A DNA stretch of 64,000 nt from Candidatus Latescibacterota bacterium (GTDB lineage Bacteria; Latescibacterota; UBA2968; SICM01). A program made the position numbers and the translations under genes. The DNA lies in assembly GCA_965217865.1 (NCBI GenBank), contig CBDCJO010000001.1, positions 512,001 to 576,000 on the forward strand, given 5' to 3'. The notes below the pieces were generated by a model. It made no database searches and was not told the origin of the DNA. It was given only the letters and a program-made list of their open reading frames with translations. Shown here piece after piece: positions 9,983 to 26,977 of the stretch (its first letter is position 1; every line of letters begins with the position of its first letter).

Positions 9983-10025
9983 AGATCGGCATATTCTTCC
10001 ACAATTTGTCCAAAAAGTTACGACG

Positions 10026-10058
10026 AAAAAGGGGCGATCCTTCGGATCGCCCCTTCGT
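10026..10058. terminator. Bidirectional intrinsic terminator
   Basis: AAAAAGGGGCGATCC-TTCG-GATCGCCCCTT, perfect stem. Confidence 0.85.
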
Positions 10059-10074
10059 TCAGGGGTTAAGATTG

Positions 10075-10090
10075 CGGCACAGACTTTGCT
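10075..10090 (+). promoter_or_regulatory. Putative sigma54 (-24/-12) promoter
   Basis: CGGCAC-AGACT-TTGCT; GG-N10-GC spacing, 39 nt upstream of the fliG-like start. Confidence 0.6.
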
Positions 10091-10128
10091 ATTGTATGGA
10101 CCGATATTCCATAAAGGAGGAAACCTAT

Positions 10129-10755
10129 ATGCCTCAGACGGACGACTTACCCCCCCGACAAAAAGTTGCCATCCTGATGATCGCCCTAGGTCAGGATACG
10201 ACGGCCGAGATCTTGAAGTACCTGAACGATATCGAGATTGAAGGAATTACGCAGGCCATCGCAGAACTTAAGACGGTAACCTCACACCAAGAAGAACATG
10301 TCCTGCAGGAGTTCGAGCAGCTCCTGGCCACGGGAAGCTACATCGCCACGGGCGGGATCGAGTTTGCGAGAGGGGCCCTGGAGAGGGCGGTTGGCCCTCA
10401 CAGATCTCAAACCATCCTCGATCGCGTCAACAGCACAACCACCAACGGATTTTACCTCCTGCGCAACGTGCCGCCGAATCAGCTTGTCCCATTCATCTCC
10501 AAAGAGCACCCACAGACGATCGCCCTGATCCTTTCCCAGCTCGATCCCGGACAGGCCGCTGGGATTATCGGGATGCTCCCCGATGACATTCGCTCCGATG
10601 TGACCTACCGAATCGCCACGTTGGAACAGATCTCACCGCATGTCCTCAGGGACATCGAGCAAAGTCTGGCCCATGAACTCCAGGCGGTTTTGACCGGCCA
10701 AATCGAAGAGGCCGGCCAGATCTCCGTCTCCAAAACCCAAGAGGTTTTCATATAG
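10129..10755 (+). CDS. fliG: FliG-like protein, N and M domains only (C-terminal domain absent)
   Basis: AAAGGAGG RBS; KVAILMIALG, GGIEFA, EHPQTIALILSQL; stops near the GG linker. Confidence 0.8.
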   Translation: MPQTDDLPPRQKVAILMIALGQDTTAEILKYLNDIEIEGITQAIAELKTVTSHQEEHVLQEFEQLLATGSYIATGGIEFARGALERAVGPHRSQTILDRVNSTTTNGFYLLRNVPPNQLVPFISKEHPQTIALILSQLDPGQAAGIIGMLPDDIRSDVTYRIATLEQISPHVLRDIEQSLAHELQAVLTGQIEEAGQISVSKTQEVFI

Positions 10756-10807
10756 GTTTCGATCGATCTTCGATCTATTTTCCCCTGCTTACCAAGGTCC
10801 TCCTTCC

Positions 10808-11515
10808 CTATGGTCCACGGTTCACCCCTTCGGTGATCCCCTCCGCCTCCAACTCGTAGTCATCGTAGTAAGCCACGCTGTTCCCCTTGATCGTTTTGAA
10901 CAGGATCTTTGCGCGCGCGGCAGTGCTGTCCCGTGTCATCATCCAGATACCCGAAGATCCGGGTTCATAATCCCATTCTATCTTCAACGTTCGGATGGGA
11001 AACGGGGGATTCGTCATCTCCCCCACCACCTTCACAGGACCGTAATTCCACGCAGAAATCCAAAGGTGGCCTTTGATCCGACGTACTTTGTCCCTCGCGG
11101 GATCGATCTTAAGCTTATAAGTGATATGCCCCCTGACCACATCGGTTCCGATCAGTCCTACCGTGTAATCGTACTTCCCCAGGGGAAATCCCATAAGGTT
11201 TTTTAGCGGGAAAGCGTTGGATGGATGCCCGATGTTGGTCCATTCCACCTTCCGATCGACAAGGGATGGGGGTCGATAGATGACGACTGCCTTTTCTCTT
11301 CTCTTATCCCCCTTCGATTCCTGGACCACCAGCTGGACGACGCTCAAGCTCCGGACGAACGCTCGGGCCCGTTCCTGGTATCGGTTGACCTCTGCCACAA
11401 TCCGGTCGACTTCTTGGGCACCGGCCCCCGCGTACGCGAACAGGATGAGAAAGCCGATGAGCCAGGCATTGCATTTCGACCGGCGAACGCATGTCATGTT
11501 TTCTTTTATCGTCAT
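10808..11515 (-). CDS. Exported hypothetical protein (LolA-like beta fold possible)
   Basis: Signal peptide AGAGA|QE; TGATG coupling to the upstream gene; beta-strand pattern. Confidence 0.6.
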   Translation of the reverse strand: MTIKENMTCVRRSKCNAWLIGFLILFAYAGAGAQEVDRIVAEVNRYQERARAFVRSLSVVQLVVQESKGDKRREKAVVIYRPPSLVDRKVEWTNIGHPSNAFPLKNLMGFPLGKYDYTVGLIGTDVVRGHITYKLKIDPARDKVRRIKGHLWISAWNYGPVKVVGEMTNPPFPIRTLKIEWDYEPGSSGIWMMTRDSTAARAKILFKTIKGNSVAYYDDYELEAEGITEGVNRGP

Positions 11516-12696
11516 CACAGCAATCGGTAATTGAGGCTGGAGGTAAAACTCCTGGTCCACGGAAGCCCTTCGCTCTTGTCCACCTGAACACCGACCACGA
11601 AGTTCGTTTTGTTCTCGAGGAAGAAGCTGAATAAGGCGCCAAAAGAAGTGCCCACCTTGCTCTGGCCTGTCTGATTTCTTTCCGCACGAAGAATGTCCTG
11701 AATTGAAATGTCGATGCGGTTGCTCACCTCATAGACAAAATCGCTGATGAGGCCCGCAGTATACACCCGCCCGAAACGCCGGGTGAACGGACTGTTCAAC
11801 TCCAGGCGCTGATTGAATTGAATCCGCCAGCCCAGGGGCAACGAATAGCGGTAGTCCGCCGAGGCAGATGGATCCCCCCGTGGAATCCCCCTGTGTGAAG
11901 CCGTCGTCTGAAAACTAACCCCGAAACTGAATTCCTTTCCGTAGAACCGGTTATTGACCCGCTCCTGAAAGAGGACTTCGTTGATTCGAAGGATGCCACC
12001 CGCCCCAATCCCTTTGGGGGCCACACCCGACCCCACGATCACCCGCTCCATCTCCTCAAACCACCACTTCTTGTAGGTGGACCCGTATCGCTCCTTGAAC
12101 TCACGCTCCTTTTCAATGACGTGGCCCAGTTCGATCAAGTCTTCTTTCGGCAGGTGGTCCGAGATCGCATCCTCCCGGATCAGAAATGCCTCTACCCGAA
12201 CCGCCCGGGCAAGCGACGTGGCGTCGATGAATCTGCCGTTCCCGGCACCAACAGTAACCCGTGTAGAGGGTTGGTCGAAGGCCTTGTCGTAATCGAAGTT
12301 GACATCCGAGAACGCAAAGATCGACGTCCCCCACAGGATATATTTCTTGCCCCTCAAGTCCACGTCCGAGGCATACTGCGACGTATCCCTTGAAGAACTG
12401 ACATCCCGGTTGAGCGCCCCGGACCCGATGGCATCCAGCGAATAGCCGAAGGAAAGGCCTTCCCTGAATCGTTTGTAGGTGAATGCGAGGCTCCCGCTTC
12501 TTCCCTTCAGGTCCCCCCCCTCGGCCGCGTAGTTGAAGCTGAAGTCAGCGCGGAGGTTCTGGACAGTGGTCACCGGAACCGTATAGTCCTTGATGTCGGC
12601 ATTCTGAGCCGATGATTCGTGGGATAGAATCAGGACTGAGAAAATCCACGCAAATTGGCGAAGGCCCATCACGGCTCCGATGCGATCTGGTTTCAC
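11515..12696 (-). CDS. Putative outer-membrane beta-barrel protein
   Basis: Signal peptide, amphipathic beta strands, C-terminus SLNYRLL. Confidence 0.6.
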   Translation of the reverse strand: MKPDRIGAVMGLRQFAWIFSVLILSHESSAQNADIKDYTVPVTTVQNLRADFSFNYAAEGGDLKGRSGSLAFTYKRFREGLSFGYSLDAIGSGALNRDVSSSRDTSQYASDVDLRGKKYILWGTSIFAFSDVNFDYDKAFDQPSTRVTVGAGNGRFIDATSLARAVRVEAFLIREDAISDHLPKEDLIELGHVIEKEREFKERYGSTYKKWWFEEMERVIVGSGVAPKGIGAGGILRINEVLFQERVNNRFYGKEFSFGVSFQTTASHRGIPRGDPSASADYRYSLPLGWRIQFNQRLELNSPFTRRFGRVYTAGLISDFVYEVSNRIDISIQDILRAERNQTGQSKVGTSFGALFSFFLENKTNFVVGVQVDKSEGLPWTRSFTSSLNYRLL

Positions 12697-12753
12697 AGAA
12701 GTTTTTCGGTATCCTTTGGAGGGCGGAACAGGGGGGAACCCACGGGGGGGTTA

Positions 12754-13863
12754 TTATCTGATCTTGAGAGTCGCCAGTCCAATGAGCGCAAGGAGGCCGG
12801 ATACAATCCAGAAGCGGATGACCATCTTTGTCTCACCAATCCCGCGATGCAGGAAGGTATAATGGACGGGGGCTCTGTAGAAGATGCGTCGTCCGATCCA
12901 ATTGATTCCGAGCTTTTCCTGAATGAGCACGGAGAAAGCTTGCAGCACGAAGATGCCACCCACAATCAGAAAGAGCACCTCGGATTTGAGTAGGACGCCA
13001 AGGGTGCCCAACGTACCCCCTAAAGCTTGCGAACCGGTGTCCCCCATGATGATTTCTGCGGGATAAGCGTTATACCAGAGGAAACCGACCCCGGCCCCGA
13101 AGATGGCGGCACAGACGATGGCTATTTCCCCGCTCCCGTAGAGGTAAAAGAAGTGGAGGTAGCTTGAGTATTTTGTGTTTCCGATCACGTAAGCGAACAC
13201 GCCGTAGACCACGGCGGCGAACGATACCGGGACAATCGCCAAGCCGTCCAGACCATCGGCGAAATTGACCGAGTTGGCAATCGCCACGATGGTCAGGGTG
13301 ATAAACGGAAGATAGACCCAGTAAAGGTCAACCACAGGTGTCTTTACCATCGGAACAAAAAGTTTTGTAGCCAATTCCGGTGGGATCGGAGAGAAAGAAG
13401 CATAGAGGCAAACCGTTCCCAGGGCAAGGCCGAAACCGGATTGAGCCAGAAGCTTTGACCGTTGCGAAAGTCCTCGGTCGCTGTCCTGCCGCCTGCTCTT
13501 GAGATAATCGTCGGCTGCCCCGATCCCTCCAAACCACACGAGGGCCGAACACAACAGGGGAATGAATGGATTGGCCAAATCGCACCAGAGAAGGATACCG
13601 GAGAGGATTGACAAAATAATGACGGCCCCTCCCATCGTCGGTGTCCCACTTTTTCCCTCGTTGGATAGCTGGCCATAATCCCGGATGACATCCCGCATCC
13701 CGGATCGATATAGAAATTCCACGATACGGCGGCCCAAAATCATCGTCAGCAAAAATGCGGTCAAGGCGGCGGCGATCGCCCGGAATGTCAAATAGTCAGC
13801 CAGCCTCAGAAACGAAAGCTCCGACAAGGATTCACGCAATACATCAAAAAGGTAGAACAGCAA
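12754..13863 (-). CDS. mraY: Phospho-MurNAc-pentapeptide transferase, divergent
   Basis: KSGTPTMGG, DDYLK, NFADGLDGL, YNAYPA, MGDTGS; HHH motif reads HYT. Confidence 0.9.
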   Translation of the reverse strand: MLFYLFDVLRESLSELSFLRLADYLTFRAIAAALTAFLLTMILGRRIVEFLYRSGMRDVIRDYGQLSNEGKSGTPTMGGAVIILSILSGILLWCDLANPFIPLLCSALVWFGGIGAADDYLKSRRQDSDRGLSQRSKLLAQSGFGLALGTVCLYASFSPIPPELATKLFVPMVKTPVVDLYWVYLPFITLTIVAIANSVNFADGLDGLAIVPVSFAAVVYGVFAYVIGNTKYSSYLHFFYLYGSGEIAIVCAAIFGAGVGFLWYNAYPAEIIMGDTGSQALGGTLGTLGVLLKSEVLFLIVGGIFVLQAFSVLIQEKLGINWIGRRIFYRAPVHYTFLHRGIGETKMVIRFWIVSGLLALIGLATLKIR

Positions 13864-13869
13864 ATTCGA

Positions 13870-14805
13870 TCACCTCTGTTTGAGCCGAATCAGATCTTGG
13901 GTCAAGGTTCTTAGGTTGCCTCGAAGCGGAAAATGAGGGCTGAAGCTCGGACACGGAATGAAAAGCAAGTCCAGCGATTTTTCAACCAATTCCGCATCTC
14001 GGATCACGTCCCTTATGATCAGTTCGTGCACGGTCTGGAGAGCCGCTTCCCGTACACGCCAGTTGCGATGGCCAAACAGGTCCAGGATGGGTCTCACCGA
14101 AACCGTCCCCCCGACGTTCCCGAGGGCCAATGCAGCCTCCATGACCACCTCAAAGGACCTGTCCTTAAGGCAGGGGAGGAGGAACCCCTCGATCTCAGGA
14201 TCCGCTACCACCTGACCGGCCAGCTTGCGGATTGTAGTGGCTGCTGAAGACCTCACCTCATAGTAGGGATCTTTCAGAGCTGTGATGAGACCCGATTTGA
14301 TCTCCGGACGGAATAAGCCGAGATTACCGATCGTCTGAACGATGTTTCTCCTGATAAAACCCACCTGACGGAAATCCCCTCCGAAAATCCGGCGGATCAG
14401 ACGGTCGGGGGTCCGGTCGCGCAACATATCCAGGAGAACGGGCGTCATCTCACGATAACCGATCAACCCGACCAGTTTAACCCCCACATTCCGCACTCGC
14501 CAATCTTCGTCTTCGAGATATTCTCTGATCCTGGATCGGACCAGATCGATCTCCATTCCATCCGCCAGAGGCAGGTTTTTTCTCTCCGTCACAAAGGAAA
14601 GGAGTTGGAACGGAGAGTAACGACAAAGGTCTGTTTCACTTTCATGGTTTGAAGAGGCCAATATCTCCTCTTGGTTGGTCGATTGCCCTCCCGGACCTTT
14701 TATCACACGGGCTTGTCCCAATCCAGAAACTCCGGGATCGCGATGGAACTCCGCGACAAGGAATTTGGGAGCACGAAGGGAATAAGCCCTCCGGGTTCCC
14801 AACAT
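13870..14805 (-). CDS. HEAT-repeat protein
   Basis: Repeats DEDWRVR, DPYYEVR, DRSFEVV, HRNWRVR; start uncertain. Confidence 0.8.
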   Translation of the reverse strand: MLGTRRAYSLRAPKFLVAEFHRDPGVSGLGQARVIKGPGGQSTNQEEILASSNHESETDLCRYSPFQLLSFVTERKNLPLADGMEIDLVRSRIREYLEDEDWRVRNVGVKLVGLIGYREMTPVLLDMLRDRTPDRLIRRIFGGDFRQVGFIRRNIVQTIGNLGLFRPEIKSGLITALKDPYYEVRSSAATTIRKLAGQVVADPEIEGFLLPCLKDRSFEVVMEAALALGNVGGTVSVRPILDLFGHRNWRVREAALQTVHELIIRDVIRDAELVEKSLDLLFIPCPSFSPHFPLRGNLRTLTQDLIRLKQR

Positions 14806-15525
14806 TTAAAAAATCAGAATGGCCCGGATACCGGGATGGACCGTTTTGAATATCGTTTGAGCATGGTCTGGGAGAACACCAAAAGACACGCGGATTCCTG
14901 GATATACAGCCTCCCAATTCAAACCCGCAGTGACATGGTCCCTCATCCCTCGAAGGGTTGCGAGCACCCGCGCTGTCACGGGCTTATCATTTTCACTGGA
15001 CCGGACTGAATCGACAGGGATAACGCGAACGACCAGCTCGTGATCGAAGAAAAGGTTGTAAAAGAACGGCGTGGGGTTTTTCGTTTTAGGAGAGAAAAAT
15101 AGGAGCGTATCCGCGGAAGATCGGGCTTGGGGGATGATGGGTTGCGGCGGAAGCCCGAGATCCTCCTTCTTCCTAGCTGTATGGGGACTCGAGGTGTTAC
15201 GGGGAGAATCCGACCATGCCTTGATATCCCCCTCTACGGTGATGTCCAACAGATCATAGGCCTGTAAATCCACCCCGCGAATCTTGAATCGGAGTTTCCG
15301 GGATCTCAGATCGATGATGGCGTATGCCGAATTAAGCTCGGCCAAGGCCAATTCAAGGCGCAACGACCGGTTGTCGTGTTCCAGGATCGCCTTTTCATGC
15401 GAGAGGGCGATGAACGATCTGCGCAGGTGATCCATTCCCAAATCCGATGGGGGCAAACCGCCCGCCGCCGAAGTGGCGCTGATCAAGGTCACCACGACGA
15501 CCGGAATCCATCTCCGGGTCATCAC
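14806..15525 (-). CDS. Exported YkuD-like protein lacking the catalytic His/Cys
   Basis: Signal peptide, coiled coil, YAIIDLRSRKL like the YkuD first strand, IFKTVHPGIRAILIF like the YkuD tail; no Cys. Confidence 0.55.
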   Translation of the reverse strand: MMTRRWIPVVVVTLISATSAAGGLPPSDLGMDHLRRSFIALSHEKAILEHDNRSLRLELALAELNSAYAIIDLRSRKLRFKIRGVDLQAYDLLDITVEGDIKAWSDSPRNTSSPHTARKKEDLGLPPQPIIPQARSSADTLLFFSPKTKNPTPFFYNLFFDHELVVRVIPVDSVRSSENDKPVTARVLATLRGMRDHVTAGLNWEAVYPGIRVSFGVLPDHAQTIFKTVHPGIRAILIF

Positions 15526-15544
15526 GCCTCACCTCTCCGAGGTC

Positions 15545-16483
15545 TCAGAAGATATAAACTTTGGTCCCCCTTTTGGAGGCGTTGAAAACGACTTTCAGAT
15601 CCTCGTCGCCAAGTCTAATGCAACCGTGGGTCACGTCCCTTCCCAAAAGGCGGGTAAATAGGGTGCCGTGGATTAGATAAGGGCCACCGATGTCCATCGC
15701 ATAATCGCCAAGCACACCCGCCTCGCGCCTCTTTCTCCAATCTCTCGGGATCGGTTCATTCTCTTCAATAAAGGCCCAATCCGGCTTGGTCCAGATCGGT
15801 TCCTCAATCTTGCGCCGAATCTTCCGGATACCGAGAGGCGTCCGGAAGATCCAAACCCTTCCGTCCGGACCGATCAGCGTGTCCCCCTTGCCGGTGGAAC
15901 AGGTGGCATTCAGAAGGGTTTCTCGATGCCCCCGGAGGAACAACCGGTTTGCGTTCGTATCAACGACGATGTATGGATCCTGAGGCACCAAGGCCTCGAT
16001 CTTGATCTGGAGGTTTCTTTTCTCTCGGAGTAAGCGGGAGACATCCCGCTTCAAATCCCGTTGCGCTACTGTGGACGGATCTGCAATTTCCCCGTGGGGT
16101 CCCACGATGTCCGGTGCCATGGCTTGAATCTTCAGCCTAAGTCTGAGATTTCTGCCGATCAAGGCAGCAATCTTCTGTTTGATCGTCCAGTTTTCAGCCA
16201 GCCGCTCTTCCGCAGTTTCGTCGGAGAGGAATTCGGCGATCCCATCCTCAACCCCGAAGCTTGAGGGTCGAACTTTATACAGGGAGGTATCGTCAGGTCT
16301 GGATATTGGATAGGCATCACGACCGGGTTGAACCACCATGGCCAGATCCCGGTTTGGCCGGTCTTTATAAAGATCATCTGATTCCCCTTCCCCGTTCCCC
16401 TTCTCAGGAATCGAGAGGAGCGCGAGGAAAATCCCCGGTATCGTGATCCATTTTGAAAATCCCGTCATGTGGTGACGCCCCAT
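15545..16483 (-). CDS. L,D-transpeptidase (YkuD)
   Basis: IVVDTNANRL, TPLG, IHGT...THGCIRL; GGAGG RBS. Confidence 0.9.
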   Translation of the reverse strand: MGRHHMTGFSKWITIPGIFLALLSIPEKGNGEGESDDLYKDRPNRDLAMVVQPGRDAYPISRPDDTSLYKVRPSSFGVEDGIAEFLSDETAEERLAENWTIKQKIAALIGRNLRLRLKIQAMAPDIVGPHGEIADPSTVAQRDLKRDVSRLLREKRNLQIKIEALVPQDPYIVVDTNANRLFLRGHRETLLNATCSTGKGDTLIGPDGRVWIFRTPLGIRKIRRKIEEPIWTKPDWAFIEENEPIPRDWRKRREAGVLGDYAMDIGGPYLIHGTLFTRLLGRDVTHGCIRLGDEDLKVVFNASKRGTKVYIF

Positions 16484-16511
16484 TTTGAGAAAACCTCCGT
16501 GCGGCAGACCT

Positions 16512-17597
16512 TCAGCTTCGCGGATTGCATCCGACGATCGTGACAGGGGTTCCCACCCGCACGTGACCGAAAAGGGTCTCAATGTCGATGTCGGTCAGGG
16601 CAACGCACCCTTCTGTCCAGTCCTTGCCGCGCCCCCCGCTGCCGTGAATCGTGATCGACCCCCCGATATCCGCACCCCGGGGGATCCTTCCCCTCTGCTT
16701 GAGCATTTTGAACCGACGCTTGTCCTCTTCGTTTGGGTAGTCCAACAACAATCCCCGATTATATTTTGCTTCCGCAATCTTTCGAACGATCTTGTACTTT
16801 CCCTCGGGGGTGGCGTGATCCCCCCGGTGGAGCTTCTTCCCCAGCCATCGCATGCCGATATCCACCTGGAAACGTTTCCGGAGCACCCCCCCATAGTACA
16901 GTTCGGCACGACGATTGACTTTGTCCACCACGACGGCGTGGGCGGAATGGAGACTTGACCACTTCAAGGTTTCATCGACCCATCTTCCCCACCGTTCTTG
17001 ATGTCTTGCGTAATCCCTGATTCGTAACTCGACTCCGGACCGCACTCGATCGAGCCCCGCAATCGTCCGGTCTAATAGGTCTTGAACGGCCTCATACTTT
17101 TCACCATTTAGAAGGTGCCCCGCTTCCTCAAGGGCAACCCGGGCCGCCCCAACCTCCCGGTTCCCGCCGCGATCCAGGGGAACCCTTCCCAAAATGGAAA
17201 GCGTACGATCGATGACGGCCTTTGTCTTCTCAAGCGTCCCAAACGCGACTTCCCGAGCGCGGGTTTTATTCTGGACGGCCGATACTCGAGCCTGAACGGC
17301 TCTGGATCCAGCCATCGACGCCAACCTTTTTGCCCGATCGTAGGTTCTGAACCAGATAAACCGGCGCATCTGGCGCGCGCTTTCGCGTTGGGCGCGCAAG
17401 AGGGTTCGCTCGGAAACCTCAAACGCCTCCGGAGAATAGTTCTCCGCATCGGCTTGTCGGGCGGCCTCCACCTTCACCTTTGCCGCATCCAATTCCCGAA
17501 CAGGCAATTCCGCACAGGCCCCCGCAACCAGCAGAAGGATGCAACTGGACGGGAAAATGATCTGTCTTCTACGAGATGACGCGATCAACCGATCCAC
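16512..17597 (-). CDS. Lipoprotein L,D-transpeptidase with N-terminal DUF4398-like domain
   Basis: Lipobox AGAC; ARQADAENYSP; TPEGKY, LDYPN, IHGSGG...WTEGCVAL. Confidence 0.88.
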   Translation of the reverse strand: MDRLIASSRRRQIIFPSSCILLLVAGACAELPVRELDAAKVKVEAARQADAENYSPEAFEVSERTLLRAQRESARQMRRFIWFRTYDRAKRLASMAGSRAVQARVSAVQNKTRAREVAFGTLEKTKAVIDRTLSILGRVPLDRGGNREVGAARVALEEAGHLLNGEKYEAVQDLLDRTIAGLDRVRSGVELRIRDYARHQERWGRWVDETLKWSSLHSAHAVVVDKVNRRAELYYGGVLRKRFQVDIGMRWLGKKLHRGDHATPEGKYKIVRKIAEAKYNRGLLLDYPNEEDKRRFKMLKQRGRIPRGADIGGSITIHGSGGRGKDWTEGCVALTDIDIETLFGHVRVGTPVTIVGCNPRS

Positions 17598-17720
17598 ATC
17601 GATGCCGTTTCAAAAGTGAAAGCGCGTGAAGCGTTTCCTAACCGAGGAAGAGGGGCTTCGAATTCCGTACCGGCCAACCGTTCGGGCATCGTACTTTCCT
17701 CGGGATCTCCGGATACGAGT

Positions 17721-18356
17721 TTAGCGTTTCCGGGGGCTCCACCACGGGTTTTTCATCTGGTACTTTTCGATAGCTTCATCCACCTGACTCTTTACGTTGT
17801 CGGCAGTTGATTTGATGGCACTGGCCTTGTCTCTGGCCCCAAAATAATCTTCTCCCGAAATGGCCGAACTCACGCCAGCCACCTGCGCCTCCACGCCTGC
17901 CAGATCGGACTCGAGTTGCTCGACATCAGCTCTCGTCCCCTTCCCGCGCGGAGCAACACCAAGAGATTCTTTCGCAGCTTCAATAGAGGCTGTGGCATCG
18001 TTCAGTGCCGCCTCGGCCTCGGCCTTGGCCTTGGCCTTGGCCTTGTTTTCCTGTGCAAGTTTGGCCACGCCATCGGCCTTCGACTTCGTATCGGTTGCAT
18101 CCTGCTTTACCCGGTCATAACTCCGGAACAAGGGAAACTTGCCCTCCTGGGCTCCCAGCTCCGCATCGATGCTCTTTATCGATCCTTCCAGGGCACTGAA
18201 CTCGGCAGTCGCATACTTGGGCGCTTCGGCCTTACGGGCGTTTTCCACTGCAGCCTTTGCAGCATCGACCTCAGACGTAGGGGGTGCTGCGCAACTTGAA
18301 ACCAACCCGGCGACCGCAAAACTTAGAACAAGAAGGGACATTTGTTTCATGGCCAA
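17721..18356 (-). CDS. Ala-rich coiled-coil lipoprotein, DUF4398-like
   Basis: Lipobox VSSC; AKAAVENARKAEAPKYA; AGGAGG RBS. Confidence 0.8.
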   Translation of the reverse strand: MAMKQMSLLVLSFAVAGLVSSCAAPPTSEVDAAKAAVENARKAEAPKYATAEFSALEGSIKSIDAELGAQEGKFPLFRSYDRVKQDATDTKSKADGVAKLAQENKAKAKAKAEAEAALNDATASIEAAKESLGVAPRGKGTRADVEQLESDLAGVEAQVAGVSSAISGEDYFGARDKASAIKSTADNVKSQVDEAIEKYQMKNPWWSPRKR

Positions 18357-18582
18357 GTTTCATCCTCCTGATATAGAACGCCATCGTTCATGGTGTAATT
18401 CAACCTTTGAGCGGACGAACAAGAAGAACACCCTCACCACACCAAATCGATTTACCTTCCTTCACCTCCTTTTGACAGAATTGATCCCTTCTTAAGAAAT
18501 AGGCCCTTACCGGACGAAAGAAACGCCCATCATCGGCCTCGTGAATATTTCCATGGCCCGATCCACAGTATAGATCCGGACA

Positions 18583-19386
18583 TCATCTCCGTTTCACGGC
18601 CTTGAGCCTTTGCCTGGCCAGGTCCGCTTCGTCGGATTCCGGGAACTGTTTGATCAGGTTTCGGAGTTGTCTAATTCCCTTGGTTCGATGGTTTAACGCG
18701 AGACGTGCGTATCCAAGCTTTAACATCGCCGCGGGAACCTTATCCCCGTCGGGATAGTCCGTGATCACCCTCTGAAATGCTTTGATGGCCTTCGAAAAGT
18801 TCTTCTGGGCGTAGTGGCACTCTCCCAACCAATAACCAGCGTTATCAGAAAGATCGCTCTTTGGAAAATTTTCCAAAAGCTGCGAGAACTCGGAGATCGC
18901 CAGGGAATAATTCCCTGATTTCATGTCCTCAGAGGCCAGGTCATAAAGACCCCTGACATCCGATACAAACTCAGGTGAGGGGGTGCCGGCGAAGGTGTCC
19001 ACCCGGGAGGCCCGGGACTGAGATCCCCTCGAAGGCGTTGCCTGCCTGCTCCCGCCGTAGAGCCGCACGGATTCCAAACCCTTGGCCAGGTCCGCAAGGC
19101 GGCGGGCGGCCTCATCGAGTTTGGCCTGAACCTGCCCTAACCTCTGTTTGACATCCCCCTCGTCCGTTGAAAGCTCTGCCCACCTGCGCTTGCCTTCTTC
19201 CGCCTGGGCCTTCATCAAGCTATCCAGAGATCCGACTTGCAGGGATAGGGATCTGAGTTCTCCGCGAACGATCCCCATATCGGTCTGAACCGTCTTGACC
19301 ATCTCCTCAGTGGCACAGGCAACCGTTCCTGCCGCCACGGCCAGAAAAATCAGACGGGTGATCGGCCTGAGCGAAGTCAGGTGCAT
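18583..19386 (-). CDS. cpoB: Tol-Pal system protein CpoB/YbgF
   Basis: Lipoprotein-like signal, coiled coil, TPRs with AGYWLGE and PAAMLKLG; directly follows pal. Confidence 0.9.
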   Translation of the reverse strand: MHLTSLRPITRLIFLAVAAGTVACATEEMVKTVQTDMGIVRGELRSLSLQVGSLDSLMKAQAEEGKRRWAELSTDEGDVKQRLGQVQAKLDEAARRLADLAKGLESVRLYGGSRQATPSRGSQSRASRVDTFAGTPSPEFVSDVRGLYDLASEDMKSGNYSLAISEFSQLLENFPKSDLSDNAGYWLGECHYAQKNFSKAIKAFQRVITDYPDGDKVPAAMLKLGYARLALNHRTKGIRQLRNLIKQFPESDEADLARQRLKAVKRR

Positions 19387-19396
19387 AGGCTCCCCC

Positions 19397-20035
19397 TTAA
19401 GGGGCCATGGGTTCGGTGACTCTCGTCTCGGTACGCCTGTTCTTGGACCAGGCCATCTCGTCGTGACCGGGGTCCACAGGGCGCTCTTTTCCGTAGCTGA
19501 TCGTCCCCAGCCTTCCGGCGTCGATCCCAGCCTTCACAAGGAATTTCTGGTGGCTATCCGCCCGCCTCTGGCCAAGCGCCAGGTTATACTCGATCGTTCC
19601 ACGCTCGTCACAGTGTCCCTCGATCGTGACCTGGAACTCCGGGTTATCGTTCAATTTCTTCACGTGTTCGGCAAGCGTGGCTTTTTGGTCGTCTCGGATA
19701 TTGTGTCTATCGTAGTCGAAGTGGACTTCGGAAAAGGTCCTTCGTGCAATCTCTTTCGCCCTGGCATCTGCCTCGGCCTTGGCCTTTGCTTCGGCCTTGG
19801 CCTTTGCTTCGGCCTCGGCCCTTGCCCGGGCTTCTTCCTCGGCTTTGATTCGAGCAAGCGAATCGGCTGTCGCCTTTCGGGCCATTGCTTCAGCCTCCGC
19901 TTTGGCCCTCGCGTCGGCTTCCTCCTGCGCGCGAATGGCGGACTGATCCACACATCCGATGGCCAGGAGCGCCACGACTGCGGTCGAACAGGCCAGGTTC
20001 CGTTTGATGATTATCCTCATACCATCGAATTTCAT
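19397..20035 (-). CDS. pal: Peptidoglycan-associated lipoprotein Pal
   Basis: AIGC lipobox; [36 protein letters not shown]; AAGGAGG RBS. Confidence 0.95.
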
Positions 20036-20124
20036 GATTGCCTCCTTAACTGGAGTTGTGGATTGCTCACGCGAAAATGCCGACTCTCTTGAAGGATAAC
20101 CGGCCCCCGAATGAGCGCCCGGGT

Positions 20125-21480
20125 TCATTCCTGCTCCATCATTAACGCCGGAGACCAAGCCGGAGAAATCCCCGGGGTCAACCGTCGAACATTGGTGCCA
20201 TCCCAATTCATGACATAGATCTCCTCCCTCCCGTTCCGATCCGACCAGAAGACGATCTGTAACCCGTCCGGCGACCAGGACGGATCTTCATTGCTTCCCC
20301 CGGCGGTTAGCCTGAAAGGGGTTCCTCCTTCCACTTCCGTCACATAGACATCGAAACCTTCAAAACCCCGTCGGACGAAAGCGAGCTTCTTCCCGTCCGG
20401 CGACCACCGAGGAGACCCTTCATAGGCGTCCGGTTCCCAGGTCAACCTGCCAAGGTTCGATCCATCCCTGTCCATCATATAAATCTGCGGAATTCCCGAA
20501 CGATCAGAGGTGAAAGCAATCCTATCCCCCCCGGGGGACCACGCCGGTTCTGTGTCTGTTTCGGGATGATCCGTCAACCGGCGAAGCCTCCATCCCGATG
20601 TCGTGATCGTATAAAGATCGATGTTGTCCCCATCCTTGACCGAGAAAAGGATCTGACGCCCATCGGGCGACCACGCAGGAGAGATATTCAATACTGAAGA
20701 GGTACGAATCGGGGTCGTGAAACCCGTTAAGACATCGGCGATGAACAGCTCCCACCGGTCATGCTGGAGCGAAGAATACGCGATCTGTTTTCCATCGGGC
20801 GACCACTCGGGAGATAGGTTTACCGTACCGTCGTCGGTTACCTGACGAGCCCCGTGGCCATCGTAACCCATCACGAAGATCTCTTTGTCGCCGTTTCGCT
20901 TCGAAACGAATGCGATCTGCGACAAAGCCACGCCCCGTTGACCCAGCAGGCTGTATATGATATCGTCGTTTAATCGGTGCGCAACAGACCGCGCACGGTC
21001 CAGATCCACGACATAGGACTTTGCGATCAATAGTCTCCCGTCGGGGAGCCGGTAAAGCGTCGCGAAAAGCTCTGTATGGTCGAGCGTTCGGTGAACCTCA
21101 CCCCGGACCAGACCCCGGGCGCCCGCGGCGGACCAGATATCGAGCAAAGATCCGTGTCCCGTGCTGTCTACGATAGCGGAATCCGCAAGAACGTCGAACC
21201 TGCCGGAGTATCTGAGATCGTCCCTCAGTACGTTGAAGATGACATCCGCGACCTGAACCACCGTTGCATCCGTCGTGTCCCGAACAAATGTGGTGAGGCC
21301 AAGGGGGGTCTTCCGGATCCCCCCTTTTACACCGAGGTAAACCTCCGGATAAAACCGAACGGTATCCGACCGGACATCGGTCGGGGTGGGCTGGGCAGAC
21401 GCCTCTCCCACCGCTAGGATGATGGGAGAGAGAACGAGACAATATACGATCTGTTTAAAACGACGAGATCCGGAGACCAA
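20125..21480 (-). CDS. tolB: TolB
   Basis: [10 protein letters not shown]-terminal domain; PxWSPDG propeller repeats; start approximate. Confidence 0.92.
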
Positions 21481-21487
21481 GGCGTCT

Positions 21488-22162
21488 TCAATTTTCAAAG
21501 TCGAAATGTACCCCAAGTTGGTCACTCTGATACCCATCGGGAAGAGGCGCCAGCGGCCCTGCCCAGGCTACAGCGTTGAAAGCCGCACGGTCGAACACCA
21601 GCACCCCAGATCCTGCTTCCACAAGAGATTCCGTGATCATCCCGTCCTTCCTGATCCTGAAAAAGACAGTCGCCTTCAGGATCCCTTGCTTTCCCACGAT
21701 CATGGGCTCTTCCCACCGCGACAAGATTCGAGACTTGACGTCTTTAATGTAATCGGGAAACGGGAAAGGCTCCCCCTCCAGCCTCATCCCCCCTCCACTT
21801 CCCCCAGGTCCCTGCCCGCCTCTACTCGGGCTCGCACCTTCTTTCCCGGGTCGCTGGCTCCAACGGCGGGCGGGCTTCTTCGTTCCCTTCGGGGCCGACG
21901 GTTCGTTGGACGGCGCCCGTTTTACCTTCAGGCCGGTTCTTACCCTTGGCCTCACCACTTCCGTTTGGGGGATGTTCAACGACTTCTCGCCTTCCCCGTG
22001 CGCCGCTCCGAGCCCACCCAGTCCCTGTGGGAAACCGACAAGCTCCACACCATACACCCTGACCGGTGGGCCGCTCTGCCTATTCCCCCTCTCAGACCCC
22101 CATACGACCCCGGCAACAGCGATAACGTGGATGATCATGGAGATCAAGACTGCGCTCTTCAT
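21488..22162 (-). CDS. tolA: TolA/TonB-family protein
   Basis: N-terminal SxxxH TM segment (SMIIH), G/P-rich linker, TonB_C-like SG...FDRAA. Confidence 0.75.
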   Translation of the reverse strand: MKSAVLISMIIHVIAVAGVVWGSERGNRQSGPPVRVYGVELVGFPQGLGGLGAAHGEGEKSLNIPQTEVVRPRVRTGLKVKRAPSNEPSAPKGTKKPARRWSQRPGKEGASPSRGGQGPGGSGGGMRLEGEPFPFPDYIKDVKSRILSRWEEPMIVGKQGILKATVFFRIRKDGMITESLVEAGSGVLVFDRAAFNAVAWAGPLAPLPDGYQSDQLGVHFDFEN

Positions 22163-22587
22163 GGCCGCCCAACCCCCTCGACGATCTCTTCGACCAGCCC
22201 CAACCGGGTGACACCCGATGCCTTGATCCTCCCGACGATCTCCACCACCTTCCCGTAGGGAACCTCTTCATCCGCGCGGAGGAAAACAGGACGATCCCCG
22301 ATCCGGGCCCGTGCCGCCTCGAAGCGTTTTTGAAAATTGGCGAACGATACGCGCTCCCTATCGATCTGCACCTTCAGGTCGCGGGTGATCGTGACAACCA
22401 CGCCTTCCTGAACCTCCGCCTGACCGATCGTCGACTTCGGAAGGTTCACCCCAAGCCATTCCATCATCGCCGGGACAGTCACCATGAAAATGATCAGGAG
22501 AACCAGCATGACGTCCACGAACGGCGTCACATTGATATCCGAGAGGACCGACCTCCGGGACCCCGACCTCAGACGCTGAACGTTCAC
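22159..22587 (-). CDS. tolR: TolR/ExbD
   Basis: INVTPFVDVMLVLLIIFMV, LRADEEVPYG. Confidence 0.92.
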   Translation of the reverse strand: MNVQRLRSGSRRSVLSDINVTPFVDVMLVLLIIFMVTVPAMMEWLGVNLPKSTIGQAEVQEGVVVTITRDLKVQIDRERVSFANFQKRFEAARARIGDRPVFLRADEEVPYGKVVEIVGRIKASGVTRLGLVEEIVEGVGRP

Positions 22588-23285
22588 GTTCTTCCCCGGA
22601 CCGGTACGGTGGCCACGAACTCCACGGCGAACTGCTCCACCTCGCGCTGGATGGCTTCAACCCGTCCGAGAAAATAGTTATACGCGATCACCGCCGGAAC
22701 CGCGGCCGCGAGGCCGGCAGCCGTCGCGATCAGCGCTTCCGCGATTCCAGGAGCCACGACCGCAAGATTCGCCGAACCCCGTAGGCCGATGTTCAAGAAA
22801 GAGGTCATGATCCCCCACACCGTTCCGAATAACCCGATGAAAGGGCTGATGTTTCCAACTGTGGCCAGGAAGGGCAGATGCCTTTCCAGGGATACCATTC
22901 GCCCGGTAGCGGCGACATCCAGGGTCCTCCGAAGGTCCTCCCGATCTCCGGACCATCCTCCGCCCCCCTCTCCGTAGACCAACTCGTAGCCCGTTCGAAA
23001 GATTCCGCATAACGGGGACCGATTCAAAATCCGGCTCATCTTGTATATATCGGAAACTTGGGCCCTGGATCGAAAAAGCCGCAACAACCTCGACGACTCG
23101 TGCTGAATTCGCCTTAGATCGACCAGTTTTCGACCGATGATCCCCCAGGAGACCACCGAGAAGAAAAATAAAACAAGCAAAACCCCTTTGACAACCGGTC
23201 CCGCTTCCCCGACCAGCCCAATTGCGCCCTGGGACAACCCGGTTCCAAGCATAGGCAAAAAGGTGAAGTCGCGTTTAGGCGACAA
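22584..23285 (-). CDS. tolQ: TolQ/ExbB
   Basis: SPFIGLFGTVWGIM, VAPGIAEALIATAAGL; start may be ATG 23252. Confidence 0.92.
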   Translation of the reverse strand: MSPKRDFTFLPMLGTGLSQGAIGLVGEAGPVVKGVLLVLFFFSVVSWGIIGRKLVDLRRIQHESSRLLRLFRSRAQVSDIYKMSRILNRSPLCGIFRTGYELVYGEGGGGWSGDREDLRRTLDVAATGRMVSLERHLPFLATVGNISPFIGLFGTVWGIMTSFLNIGLRGSANLAVVAPGIAEALIATAAGLAAAVPAVIAYNYFLGRVEAIQREVEQFAVEFVATVPVRGRT

Positions 23286-23343
23286 AAGCTGGGGTCAAAG
23301 GCCGTAATCGGCACGGCTGCTGATGGCGAACGACATAAAGGGT

Positions 23344-25795
23344 TCAGAACTGAAATTTGGATTCCGATTTCGGGTTTTGGCGGGCCGCCCCTGGCTTCCC
23401 CGCAAACCTGTCCCGGAAATGCCCTTGGTCGGTCCGTTGACCGTCCCCCCCAGGAGATGACCGCCATCCGTCCCCAGCGATCGGGGACCCGGGGAAACGC
23501 TCCGTACCCGCCCTAAACGCCACAGGTTCCCCCCCGCGCTCGTCCGACAAGATTTCGCCCCGGGTGCTCAGATAGTTAAAGGCGATTCCTTCCGGGACCT
23601 CAAATTCCCGAGAGGGTTTGTCGAAAAGGGCCCCCTTCATAAAATCCAACCAGATAGGGGCGGCCACATATCCCCCGGTAAACTTCTCTACCCATGGGTC
23701 TGCGATCATCGTAGCCCACCCACGTGCCGGCCACGAGTTCCGGGGTATAGCCGACGAACCAGACATCTGTAAGGCCGTTTGTCCCGGTCTTCCCCGCGGT
23801 TGGCCGACCGAGTTCCTTGACCCTTCTGGCCGTACCCCTTTCCACTACCGCTTGGAGCATGTTGGTCATGATGTAAGCGGTCTGGGGGGAGATGGCGTAT
23901 TCTTCATCCGGTGTTTCGGCTTGCCCGTTCGACGAACCGGTCTCCCTTCCCCTTTCGTGCCATTTGCCAGGACGGTTGACAAATCGGTTGTCTTCGAGCA
24001 CCCGCCCCTTTCGATCCCGGATCATCGTGATGAAAACGGGCTCCACTTTCCGGCCGGCGGCGGCAAAAACCGTGTAGGCCTTCGTCAACTCCAGTAAGGA
24101 GATCCCCGAAGAACCCAGGGCAATCGAGGGGTTCGGTCCTAAGGGGGTCGTGATTCCAAGCCTTCTTGCCCGCTCGACAACAGCCTGAGGCCCAAGACGA
24201 TCCGTCAACCGAACCGATACGGAGTTCAGAGATTTTGCCAAGGCGCTCCTGAGGGTCTGCGGCCCCATGAACTTTCCCTTGAAGTTCCTCGGGGTCCAAT
24301 CCTTTATCGTTATCGGAGCATCTACAACCACCGTCATTTGGGTATAGTCGAGGGAATCCATGGCAACCGAATAGATGATCGGCTTAAAGGCCGAACCCGG
24401 TTGTCTTCGGGCTTGGATGGCCCGGTCGAATTGGCTCCTGCTGTAGTCATACCCTCCGACCAGCGAGCGCACGTATCCGTTCGAAGGGTCGATGGCCACC
24501 AGGGCTCCCTGAATCAGCGGATCCTGATCCAGGGAGACGCGATAGATGCCTCCTTCGCGCCCCACGACTCGGACGTCAACAATATCACCGGGCCCCAGGC
24601 CCCTCCGAAGGCTGCGCTCTGTGGCCACCCCTTCGTTCCCGAGCGTCCGACTTGCCCATTTGGATTCATCCTCATCCAGGATGGCCCTTAAAGACCCGAT
24701 ACGGAGCCGAACCCGGTTTCCAACCTTTGATACCACCGCCTGATATTTCTCCCCCTCATCGAGCTTGATACTCTGGCCTCGGGAGGAACCGCCGGCTTTG
24801 GCGCTCCGAATCTCCTCGGCTTGCTTCTGCAGGAACGATTTCACCTGCCGCGGACTCAGAAATCCGATTCTCCCTCGGAATCCCATGTCCTGATCGAGAC
24901 CTCGCAAGCCCCCCTGGATGGCTTGATTTGCCGCCATCTGAATCTGCAGGTCCAAACCTGTGTAGATCTTTAGGCCATCCCGGTAGATCGACTCGGATCC
25001 ATAATTCGATCTGACGTTTTTTCTGACTTGTTCGACAAAATAAGAAGCGACCTTGTGATTTCGATCCTCCCAGGGATCGATCTGAATATCCTGTTTAGCA
25101 GCCCGTTTGGCTTGACGAAGGGTTATAAACCCCTCCTTGAACATCCTCTGGAGGGTGTAGACCTGCCTTTGTTTGGCTCCCCGGAAATTGGTAATCGGGG
25201 AATAATGGGACGGGGCCTTCGGCAAACCCGCCAGCATAGCAGCCTCGGCCAGTCCCAACTCGTTGACGTGCCGTCCGAAATAGTTTTGAGCGGCGGCCTC
25301 AACGCCGTATGCCCCGTGTCCAAAGTAGATCTGGTTGAGATAGAGGTGGAGGATCTGTCCTTTGTTCAATTCCCGTTCGATCCGATAGGCCAGGATCGCC
25401 TCTCGGATCTTTCGGCTGTAGGATATCTCACGGTCCAGAAAAAATTCCCGGGCGATCTGCTGGGTTATGGTGCTCCCCCCTTGGGGACGCTTGCGTGGCT
25501 CGAGATTCTTCAGGAAGGCCTTTGCAATACGCAGAAAATCCACGCCGCTGTGTTCAAAGAATCGCCCATCCTCCGCCGCAACGAAAGCCTTTTTAACCAC
25601 CCTCGGAATGGAGTCCAGGGGAACGACCACTCGCCTTTGAATATAAAATTCTCCGATTACCGTTCCGTCCGCAGCATAAACCTGGCTCAATACACTGGGA
25701 TCATAGTCTTGGATGGCCGTTAGATCCGCGGGGAGCTGCCGATTATAATAGCGGTAAGTCCCCCGCTGCCTGATTTTCGGAAAAAAATACGGCAA
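23344..25795 (-). pseudogene. mrcA: PBP1A (class A PBP), frameshifted near 23689 and lacking the N-terminal TM anchor
   Basis: GT motifs EDGRF and GGSTITQQ; TP motifs SAFK, SLN, KTG; the C-terminal TGG..AAPIW segment is in another frame (ORF 23344..23766). Confidence 0.8.
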
Positions 25796-25834
25796 CCAAA
25801 CACGGGAAATGCGCTCCTCCTGCCTTCAAATTAA

Positions 25835-25864
25835 TAACTTACGACATTAAACGATCCTTGTCAA
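25835..25864 (-). promoter_or_regulatory. Sigma70 promoter for PBP1A and possibly the tol-pal cluster
   Basis: TTGACA-17-TAAGTT followed by AGGAGG. Confidence 0.65.
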
Positions 25865-26016
25865 GTACGAAGTGAAGGAGGTGAAAACCACGACAGAGGT
25901 TCATTCCGGATTTGGTCCGCGGGAGCCCGGGGTCCCCTTTTTCGGGGGTTTCAGATCTTGTGGGGGCGGGCTTGGATCACGAAACCTCCCGGGTTAATAC
26001 AGTTTAAGATCAAAGA

Positions 26017-26065
26017 TAAAGGAGGCGACTCTCAGTCAAATTCCCTGAGAACCTCCTCCTTTAGC
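26017..26065 (-). terminator. Hairpin downstream of the sigma factor gene
   Basis: TAAAGGAGG...CCTCCTTTA stem with an inner CTCAG/CTGAG pair. Confidence 0.5.
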
Positions 26066-26104
26066 CCAAATCGACAACACGCTTAAAACACACGGAGATC
26101 GGAT

Positions 26105-26977
26105 CTATATCTCTTCCGAATATGGGATCAACTTCTTACCGCGGGTGGGATGCCTTAACTTTCGCAAGGCCTTTTCTTTGATCTGCCGCACGCGTTCTCG
26201 GGTAAGACCGAACTTGACCCCGATCTCCTCCAGGGTCATCTCGTTCGCCCCTCCCAAACCGAAATAGAGACGGACCACCTCGGCCTCCCGATCTTCGAGC
26301 GTTCCCAGGGCGACATCTATCTCCTCCTCAAGGGAATTCCGCATCAAAAGCGCGTCGGGCGGTTCCTGGCGGCTATCCGCCATAATCTCCATAAGACTGT
26401 TTTCATCGTTGTCGTCGAAGGTCGCGTCGAGGGACAAGATCCGCTGCCCGCTGGCAAGCGTTTCCGCAACCTGGTCGACAGAGATGCCCAACTCCTCTGC
26501 AATCTCCTCTTCTGCCGGTCGCCGGGAAGTCTCCTGCTGTTTGTCGGTGGAAAACCTTGAGATTCGACGGAGCAGATCAACCCTGTTCAGGGGCAGGCGT
26601 ACGACCCGAGAATGTTCTGCGAGTGTCTGGAGAACGGCCTGTCGGATCCACCAGACCGCATAAGATATGAATTTGAACCCTTTCGTCTCGTCAAACCGCT
26701 CCGCCGCTGTGATTAACCCGACGTTTCCCGCGCTGATGAGGTCCGCCAAGGGGACCCCCTGATTCTGATACTCACGTGCCACGCTGATGACAAAACGGAG
26801 GTTTGCCTCGACGAGTTTCGTTCGAGCCTGGAGATCCCCCAATTTGATTCTCTGAGCGAGTTCGACTTCCTCTTTGGATGAAAGGGGCTGCGATGCCGCA
26901 ACATCCTCCAGATATCGTTGCAGAGAATCCTTCACATCATCATAGGCACTGTGTAAACTCTGGTTCAAATCGATCAC
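26105..26977 (-). CDS. RNA polymerase sigma factor, RpoD/SigA-like short form (no region 1.1)
   Basis: ANLRFVISVA, GFKFISYAVWWIRQ, TRERVRQIKEKALRKL. Confidence 0.95.
   Translation of the reverse strand: MIDLNQSLHSAYDDVKDSLQRYLEDVAASQPLSSKEEVELAQRIKLGDLQARTKLVEANLRFVISVAREYQNQGVPLADLISAGNVGLITAAERFDETKGFKFISYAVWWIRQAVLQTLAEHSRVVRLPLNRVDLLRRISRFSTDKQQETSRRPAEEEIAEELGISVDQVAETLASGQRILSLDATFDDNDENSLMEIMADSRQEPPDALLMRNSLEEEIDVALGTLEDREAEVVRLYFGLGGANEMTLEEIGVKFGLTRERVRQIKEKALRKLRHPTRGKKLIPYSEEI

Follow-up and report, generated by a model that had tools for sequence, protein, structure and literature searches.

The 64,000 nucleotides of Candidatus Latescibacterota DNA analysed here (the window, from genome G000: 6.43 Mb in 2 contigs, 96% complete and 9% contaminated) contain a string of 15 co-directional cell-envelope genes, running on the minus strand from position 25795 down to 10808. 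The string is probably an arrangement, specific to its family, of three independently inherited envelope modules: the Tol-Pal system; a housekeeping mraY gene preceded by a HEAT-repeat gene that likely serves MraY; and a cassette of lipoprotein and L,D-transpeptidase (LDT) genes that likely tethers the outer membrane (OM) to the peptidoglycan (PG). Such a mosaic fits better than one machine, given the dispensable ends (with breaks in PBP1A here and, in a close relative, in the DpaA-like gene of the LDT cassette) and the intact mraY. The literature searched held no description of two of the three modules; the supplements of the cited papers could hold related lists.

Organisation and conservation of the locus

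An original prediction, made from the sequence letters, had listed about 15 co-directional genes in this order, and this was borne out both by the gene calls on the window and by an independent contig of run X6 (20,691 nt), which covers 10699-26200 with identical gene order. Counted from the 3' end, the gaps are -1, 84, 6, 0, 19, 43, 123, 232, 10, 89, -50, -4, -4 and 58 nucleotides (nt), the widest being the 232 nt after cpoB and the 123 nt after the lipoprotein gene. A promoter and terminator scan of the locus stayed within the chance range (12 against 7.5 +/- 3.0 and 21 against 19.5 +/- 4.8). Two sponge metatranscriptomes contained 0.32 and 0.24 of the sampled words, a result given no weight here.

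Below, f1 denotes the window's family, f2-f4 are families of the same class, and f5-f14 belong to other classes of the phylum. The full 15-gene order was kept in 3/3 f1 genomes; in G001 and G002, cpoB and the lipoprotein gene are separated by inserted SLT and DegP genes. A neighbourhood of DUF4398, YkuD, HEAT and mraY genes, proposed in the original prediction as a check, was conserved in order within f1 (3 genomes) but was not found beyond it. As to the outcome named there as contrary, this mraY is indeed the only one of the genome, yet the gene order is kept in f1. In genus g15, a DpaA-like gene lies about 3.5 kb from mraY in 5/5 genomes; the remaining lipoprotein-cassette genes were not found in the stretches fetched around mraY.

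mraY and the HEAT-repeat gene

Domain calls were judged against the Pfam and NCBIfam (TIGR) cut-offs. Two genes make up this module:

12754..13863, minus strand: mraY, the genome's only copy, of a cassette-type clade (TIGR00445 279.8 bits, cut-off 192.05)
13870..14805, minus strand (conserved part 13870-14640, start uncertain): stand-alone HEAT-repeat protein (HEAT_2)

The mraY of the window is a housekeeping gene and not an accessory one, because it encodes the only MraY of the genome and the division and cell wall (dcw) cluster has none. That cluster (C2:968-983 kb) reads mraW-ftsI-murE-murF-ftsW-murG-murC-murB-ftsQAZ, without mraY or murD, and the second, canonical dcw copy that had been looked for does not exist: no other gene over the TIGR00445 cut-off was found in this 96% complete, two-contig genome. 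The other three GT4 matches, at 48-93 bits, were rejected as a second mraY, the best one being without the Pfam MraY signature. In other classes, mraY lay between murF and ftsW in 8/8 dcw loci. The murD gene is at C2:1.344 Mb, and was outside the dcw cluster in all phylum loci checked; a transposase-like ORF, read by eye at G000:C2:1340641-1342041, lies near the displaced murD and interrupts a neighbouring gene. In close relatives, mraY was full length in 5/5 cluster members.

Elsewhere, relatives of this mraY follow a gene for a MurG-HEAT fusion (the MurG-HEAT/mraY cassette; its products are called cassette MraY below). The protein of the window keeps D118, D119, D275 and H334, which are invariant in 88 cassette rows. 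The predicted variation of MraY is real: the HHH of the motif PXHHHXEXXG, as given in the available part of PMC5039524, is here HYT (PVHYTF). HYT was present in 3/3 f1 genomes, while HHH was found in 19/22 f2, 26/27 dcw and 0/72 other cassette MraY, and the third His was replaced in all 70 of these last 72 whose motif was readable. As the departure from HHH extends across all non-f2 cassette MraY, HYT is no mark of a special function at this locus, and the product is most likely ordinary lipid I.

Phylogenetic trees were built with FastTree on 136 rows and with IQ-TREE on 41 of 137 rows. The MraY of the window fell with cassette MraY, and an approximately unbiased test on the 41 of 137 rows rejected its grouping with the dcw MraY of the phylum (p = 3.4e-5). 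Compared with canonical dcw MraY and MurG (PMC5039524 and PMC10214165, each in the part available), it resembles them in its TIGR00445 score, its Asp-Asp, DGxDG and MGDxG motifs, the retained first loop-E His and its single copy; it differs in lying outside the dcw cluster, in its separate clade, in HYT for HHH and in the HEAT module directly before it. In f3 and f4, the only MraY-like gene (for instance L064:9705-10748) scored about 110-130 bits, under the cut-off, with HDH for HHH; it lies outside the dcw cluster and on a long separate branch, a second, independent replacement of dcw mraY within the same class.

The HEAT module is found elsewhere as the C-terminal part of MurG-HEAT and MurJ/MurG-HEAT fusions. 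Here it stands alone, with its RNxGxK, GGDF-GxxRRN and DPYxE motifs, directly before the cassette-clade mraY (4-6 nt in 3/3 f1 genomes). The model is an alpha-solenoid with a predicted local distance difference test score (pLDDT) of 89, and no membrane segment was found in the protein. Judged by a ratio of non-synonymous to synonymous substitution (dN/dS) of 0.14-0.28 (two of the three pairs being close to saturation in dS), the stand-alone gene is under purifying selection, and the invariant residues of the family are kept. The N-terminal part varies, and in two runs the frame differs near 14733. The genes for HEAT and MraY share a reading frame, separated by a single TGA (window 13863-13872); read-through is not conserved, because the relatives have a 4-nt gap.

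Relatives of the HEAT module were collected by a genome-contig scan (best 80 of 250), 78 of them outside f1. The module was fused to MurG in 75 of these 78 loci (two others were cut by contig ends and one was split) and mraY followed in 77, with MurJ-like sequence fused or adjacent in 8; Pfam confirmed both MurJ-MurG-HEAT and MurG-MurJ-HEAT proteins. Among the sources of these loci were Syntrophobacteraceae, Myxococcota, Acidobacteriota, Planctomycetota and Gemmatimonadota. A profile search of 1.84 billion representatives brought up many generic HEAT proteins, with short hits that may be truncated, and did not enter the counts. No Tol-Pal, PBP1A or YkuD genes were found within the 10 kb or less fetched around any of the 78. 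In 42/42 tested genomes of this set, no mraY over the cut-off and no murG lay outside the cassette, and six dcw clusters fetched from cassette genomes were without both genes. Within the phylum, the HEAT module was present in f1 (3/3), f2 (74/76), f13 (1/1) and f14 (4/5), and in none of f3-f12. In f2, MurG-HEAT stood directly before mraY in 18/18 loci from 29 genomes (one split by a frame break), mostly flanked by a conserved gene block and a RecG-like gene, as read by eye. An independent split of the fusion was seen at L108:1460-4480, where murG is followed by a separate HEAT gene with its own ATG and then by mraY.

No MurG is encoded in the locus of the window, the sole murG of the genome being in the dcw cluster. 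This native MurG groups with the dcw MurG of f3/f4 (Shimodaira-Hasegawa-like approximate likelihood ratio test, 95), apart from the MurG-HEAT clade (99). In the simplest history, a MurG-HEAT/mraY cassette would have entered and displaced the dcw mraY; f1 would have kept its native dcw murG and lost the MurG half of the cassette, and the HEAT module would be retained through working with this MraY. This history is plausible but falls a little short of an even chance. The module differs from canonical MurG and MraY in being stand-alone here, and fused to MurG, sometimes also to MurJ, in other phyla. Natural Mur chimeras listed in the available text of PMC10214165 (supplement aside) are MurE-MurF, MurC-Ddl, MurC-MurB, MurG-MurC, MurD-FtsW and MraY-MurG, with no HEAT fusion among them. 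Neither a MurG-HEAT fusion with MraY nor a transfer of MraY/MurG outside the dcw cluster was found described in the literature searched, which mostly left subscription papers, and all supplements, aside.

The lipid II flippase of the class was also sought. MurJ exceeded the TIGR01695 cut-off in 0/61 class genomes, two of which had matches below it; five MurJ queries gave no match at E 1e-5 in G000, and Amj was absent from 5/5 class genomes tested. In G113, of another class, there was no PF03023 match either. No literature on Latescibacter peptidoglycan and MurJ was found in a search that mostly excluded subscription papers.

The lipoprotein/L,D-transpeptidase cassette

17721..18350, minus strand: helical lipoprotein related to DUF4398, candidate PG-attached tether (lipobox Cys 18291-18293; DUF4398 match weak, E 0.0013)
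17940..17942, minus strand: codon of Lys139 in the AP-x-G-K loop of the lipoprotein, candidate acceptor and the most conserved residue after the lipobox Cys
16512..17597, minus strand: lipoprotein combining a DUF4398-like helical part with a YkuD domain of DpaA/YafK type (over the Pfam cut-off; H318, C331, Cys+2 = Ala), predicted amidase or carboxypeptidase
15545..16468, minus strand, start inferred: LDT (PF03734 over cut-off; HGCIR, Cys+2 = Arg; best PDB match 4lzh)
14806..15525, minus strand: Cys-less LDT paralog (pseudo-enzyme), the fourth cassette gene (hhalign against the neighbouring LDT)

These four genes form a unit of their own. From the relatives returned by a metagenome scan (at least 558), 80 were retained; the complete set of four, in order, was present in 35/36 loci with room on both sides, and the Cys-less paralog in 47/48 loci with room. 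The members with names were Bacteroidales and Prolixibacteraceae. Within the window's class, LDT was found in 129/132 genomes, single copy in all but one. In 10/10 sampled f2-f4 loci, the lipoprotein gene lay directly before the LDT gene with no tol-pal or mraY adjoining, and the Cys-less paralog was detected by profile in 4/10. The full-length DpaA-like gene was present in 9 class genomes, representing about three lineages. In G000, both YkuD genes lie in this locus.

The DUF4398-YkuD protein, first taken for another LDT, is of the DpaA-like hydrolase type instead. The position two residues after the catalytic Cys separates DpaA-like hydrolases from transpeptidases (PMC8263019, available in part); it was Ala in 86/88 rows of the DpaA-like family and Arg in 63/68 rows of the LDT family, the other five being without a readable motif. 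When compared with the E. coli DpaA residues K83, Q86, R108, Y109, K130, Y131, C143 and A145 (taken from the accessible part of PMC10653827), K83, Y109, C143 and A145 were matched in 82, 75, 82 and 82 of 82 rows, respectively; R108 was mostly Lys, and Q86, K130 and Y131 were not kept. In single comparisons with E. coli DpaA, the DpaA-like family profile gave E 4e-15 and the LDT profile 0.004. The call of a Cys-less LDT-like gene was upheld: its product aligns end to end with the adjoining LDT (hhalign probability 84.8%, E 6.5e-6), and the His...Gly-Cys motif was found in 0/60 of its homologues. Among the papers searched, no work on DUF4398 in this connection was found.

The DpaA-like gene of the close relative P0284 has a frame-broken C-terminus, and the run X6 contig skips 46 nt within this gene (window 16670-16717), matching the P0284 break. 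In an f9 genome (G112, L328:7397-8014), an M23-peptidase-like ORF, read by eye, occupies the usual slot of the DpaA-like gene between the lipoprotein and LDT genes.

A candidate acceptor lysine

The AP-x-G-K loop lies between long helical stretches of the lipoprotein. Its Lys was conserved in 103/104 rows and was never Arg, the odd row having a Lys one column off; after clustering at 50% identity, it was kept in 29/30 rows. Other Lys columns of the lipoprotein accept Arg. The C-terminal residue was rejected as an acceptor: the last residue was Lys in just 36/62 homologues, and the lipoproteins of the class end in a PWY-type tail. No match to Lpp (PF04728) was found in the genome, and none for this lipoprotein. 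Lpp has 58 residues; the lipoprotein here has about 190 mature residues, no conserved C-terminal Lys, and its candidate acceptor in an internal loop.

An internal Lys acceptor has a precedent in Lys21 of Coxiella LimB (PMC12729407, as far as available). The absence of Arg at the loop position, which fits an acceptor amine, and the LimB precedent together favour attachment of the Lys to meso-diaminopimelic acid (meso-DAP) by the LDT. The LDT (Cys+2 = Arg) would use a tetrapeptide donor and join meso-DAP to Lys139 of the lipid-anchored lipoprotein, the Cys-less paralog would be a partner without catalytic activity, and renewed cleavage of the lipoprotein-PG link would fall to the DpaA-like lipoprotein. 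This sequence of steps could equally well be right or wrong.

The nearest known system is that of E. coli Lpp with LdtA/B/C, which attach it, and DpaA/LdtF, which detaches it (PMC8263019, PMC10653827 and PMC12729407, each available in part), with which the cassette shares a helical lipoprotein, an Arg-type YkuD transpeptidase and an Ala-type YkuD hydrolase with K83, Y109, C143 and A145. Unlike in E. coli, the genes form a cluster, the hydrolase is itself lipid-anchored and joined to a DUF4398-like helical part, and a Cys-less paralog is added. The LDT-attached beta-barrels of Coxiella and Brucella, and Coxiella LimB with its internal Lys (PMC12729407, same part), are alike in LDT-mediated OM tethering without Lpp. 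The barrel candidate of the locus (described below) differs from those barrels, as it is predicted to start with Gln after the signal peptide and not with Gly-Gly or Ala-Asp; it was rejected as an LDT substrate on account of this unsuitable N-terminus, and because the barrel gene does not travel with the LDT cassette.

The Tol-Pal module and PBP1A

23344..25795, minus strand: class A penicillin-binding protein (PBP) of the PBP1A family, broken (TIGR02074 597 bits; ORF 23600-25795, with the C-terminal end in another frame, 23344-23766)
22584..23285, minus strand: tolQ (PF01618; TIGR02796 205 bits, just under the cut-off of 221)
22159..22587, minus strand: tolR (PF02472; TIGR02801 107 bits, just under the cut-off of 127)
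21488..22162, minus strand: tolA, short, with a TonB_2 C-terminal domain (PF13103 E 6.5e-9; likewise placed in other tol-pal operons of the phylum)
20125..21537, minus strand: tolB (TIGR02800 343 bits, just under the cut-off of 343.15)
19397..20035, minus strand: pal, start inferred from relatives, which align from ORF residue 58 (TIGR02802 133 bits, over cut-off)
18583..19386, minus strand: cpoB/ybgF (TIGR02795 114 bits, over cut-off)

The set tolQ-tolR-tolA-tolB-pal-cpoB is complete and in canonical order. Its members are not widespread in the class: Pal over threshold was found in 12/132 genomes and was missing from 120. A close TolB was seen in 6/61 class genomes, and such low frequencies of Pal and TolB are unusual for diderm bacteria. 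The predicted PBP1A held as to family, but this strain has a broken gene: its frame is interrupted near 23690, and the N-terminal membrane anchor is missing. The P0263 protein is intact (833 residues, 96% identical) and has an N-terminal hydrophobic segment, while P0261, a second assembly, has the same breaks as the window. The break was polymorphic across four runs: X2 carries the window allele at about 25 of 33 depth, and the allele was absent from X4, X6 and X10. A plain assembly error was rejected in view of the majority allele in X2 and the recurrence in P0261, and on the same grounds the frame break probably represents a strain allele. Another class A PBP is encoded at C2:4.616 Mb.

PBP1A was directly upstream of tolQ in f1 only, and in 0/22 other Pal loci fetched, some of them on short contigs. 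In E. coli, CpoB acts with PBP1B (PMC4458516, available in part). The locus is like the E. coli tolQRA-tolB-pal-cpoB genes with PBP1B-LpoB (PMC4458516, same part) in its full gene set, canonical order and adjoining class A PBP; it differs in that this PBP is of the PBP1A family, lies upstream only in f1, and is broken in this strain.

One system, or several

The original prediction read the locus as one dedicated, co-transcribed accessory system, an extension of Tol-Pal that would produce a variant lipid I/II and cross-link PG or tether it to the OM at constriction. This is very improbable, although it would account for the order in 3/3 f1 genomes, the small gaps, the f1-specific HYT, the presence of both YkuD genes here and the adjacency seen in f9. 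The sole mraY is an essential housekeeping gene with intact catalytic motifs, the third His is replaced also in the 70 readable non-f2 cassette MraY, and 0/78 other HEAT/mraY loci have Tol-Pal or YkuD nearby; LDT was found in 129/132 class genomes against 12 with Pal, and PBP1A and the DpaA-like gene are broken in this strain and in a close relative, respectively. In favour of that proposal, the LDT genes plausibly tether the lipoprotein to PG and the Tol-Pal adjacency recurs in f9, but the cassette lies mostly elsewhere without Tol-Pal. A partial system, in which the lipoprotein/LDT cassette and Tol-Pal are coupled, the DpaA-like enzyme frees the tether where Tol-Pal draws the OM in at division, and mraY and HEAT are hitch-hikers, is a real possibility, if not a probable one. 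The cassette followed cpoB in 5/25 Pal-positive phylum genomes, from two families and two classes (f1, 3 genomes, with SLT and DegP inserted in two; f9, 2 genomes), and was not found adjoining cpoB in the other 20, for which the stretches fetched included some short contigs. All 9 class genomes with the full-length DpaA-like gene were Pal-positive, and 0/120 Pal-negative ones carry it, a modest hint that tether release may be coupled to Tol-Pal, and this is what survives of the original prediction. Against this, the nine genomes amount to about three lineages, the f9 locus adjoins tol-pal without containing a DpaA-like gene, G105 has all four cassette genes and no Pal over threshold, and a tol-pal operon was found upstream in only one (the f1 locus) of the 28 metagenome loci that extend 4 kb or more in that direction. 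Some observations weigh against independent modules: tol-pal-cpoB stands directly before the cassette in f9 as well (2/2 genomes); an order kept in three genomes with synonymous sites near saturation, with small gaps, possibly points to selection for co-expression; the support for placing this MraY with cassette MraY was only 83/85; and the HEAT module could be retained for the native MurG and not for MraY.

This last option belongs to an unlikely account in which the stand-alone HEAT gene is a decaying MurG-HEAT leftover, or serves the native MurG in trans. The fusion to MurG in nearly all other cases, the variable N-terminus and the frame differences near 14733 agree with it; the low dN/dS and retained invariant residues, the 4-6 nt spacing before mraY in 3/3 genomes, and the second split (L108), which likewise leaves a separate HEAT gene before mraY, speak against it. 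For the lipoprotein/LDT cassette, the alternative is that the LDT makes 3-3 cross-links, the Ala-type YkuD protein acts as an L,D-carboxypeptidase, and the lipoprotein, instead of being a substrate, activates or scaffolds them without covalent attachment. Taken whole, this account is credible but not the one expected. The Cys+2 rule parts hydrolases from transpeptidases and not anchoring from cross-linking enzymes; DpaA-like proteins of Lpp-less species may be carboxypeptidases, as stated in the accessible text of PMC8263019; and Q86, K130 and Y131 of DpaA are not kept. Further points weigh against attachment through the loop Lys: a second Lys column is also well kept (99/104, 95%), an invariant loop Lys could have a structural role, related Bacteroidales rows abound in the alignment, and the lipoprotein ends in Arg here, with a C-terminal Lys in only 36/62 homologues. 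In favour of attachment, Arg never takes the place of the loop Lys as it does in other basic columns; Coxiella LimB (PMC12729407, in the part available) offers a precedent for an internal Lys acceptor; and the lipoprotein and LDT genes remain adjacent where other partners are lost. Lys-meso-DAP attachment is the reading favoured, at about even odds against 3-3 cross-linking with a non-covalent lipoprotein partner.

Exported proteins and flanking genes

11515..12669, minus strand: exported protein, probable OM beta-barrel (lead only), conserved beside mraY in f1 only
10808..11515, minus strand: exported protein, weakly similar to DUF5686/LolA (each match below its cut-off), conserved in f1

The OM barrel of the original prediction is kept as a lead only: the protein had no Pfam match, DUF481 was present in 26% of the members of its Atlas cluster, and a single-sequence fold had pLDDT 31 and was not used. 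A paralog with 43% identity lies in another context (G000:C1:265440-266801). In G002 (L045:17875-18777), a D-Ala-D-Ala carboxypeptidase gene (Peptidase_S11) follows the second exported protein; there is none at that place in the window. Upstream of PBP1A are a sigma-70 factor gene (window 26105-26977, minus strand), present also in G001 with 94% identity, and, farther off, a flagellin-like ORF (31008-32153, minus strand). Downstream of the string, fliG (9979-10755, plus strand) is shortened, matching about 200 of the 349 residues of the G001 protein and then jumping to the last few C-terminal residues.

Significance

The 15-gene string is a local arrangement and is not to be called one new machine; its interest lies in the modules. 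How the OM is attached to the wall in Lpp-less diderms, and what DpaA-like enzymes act on there, were left open in the available text of PMC8263019. The cassette offers candidates for the substrate, the attaching enzyme, the detaching enzyme and the single residue of such attachment without Lpp. Its core is kept in 129/132 genomes of the class, 120 of which lack a Pal over threshold. With its stand-alone HEAT gene, f1 presents the MurG-HEAT fusion dissected by nature, which raises the question of a soluble partner of MraY. That no MurJ over the cut-off was found in the class, nor Amj in the five genomes tested, points to a lipid II flippase of another kind. At its boldest, and as a tentative proposal that may well not hold in full, the DUF4398-like lipoprotein would be an unrelated functional analogue of Braun's lipoprotein, attached through an internal hairpin Lys by a transpeptidase/pseudo-transpeptidase pair, released by its own DpaA-like lipoprotein, and the main OM tether in this mostly Pal-less class, with members in Bacteroidales too; the HEAT protein would be a soluble subunit of an MraY spread by horizontal transfer, within a class that yielded no MurJ.

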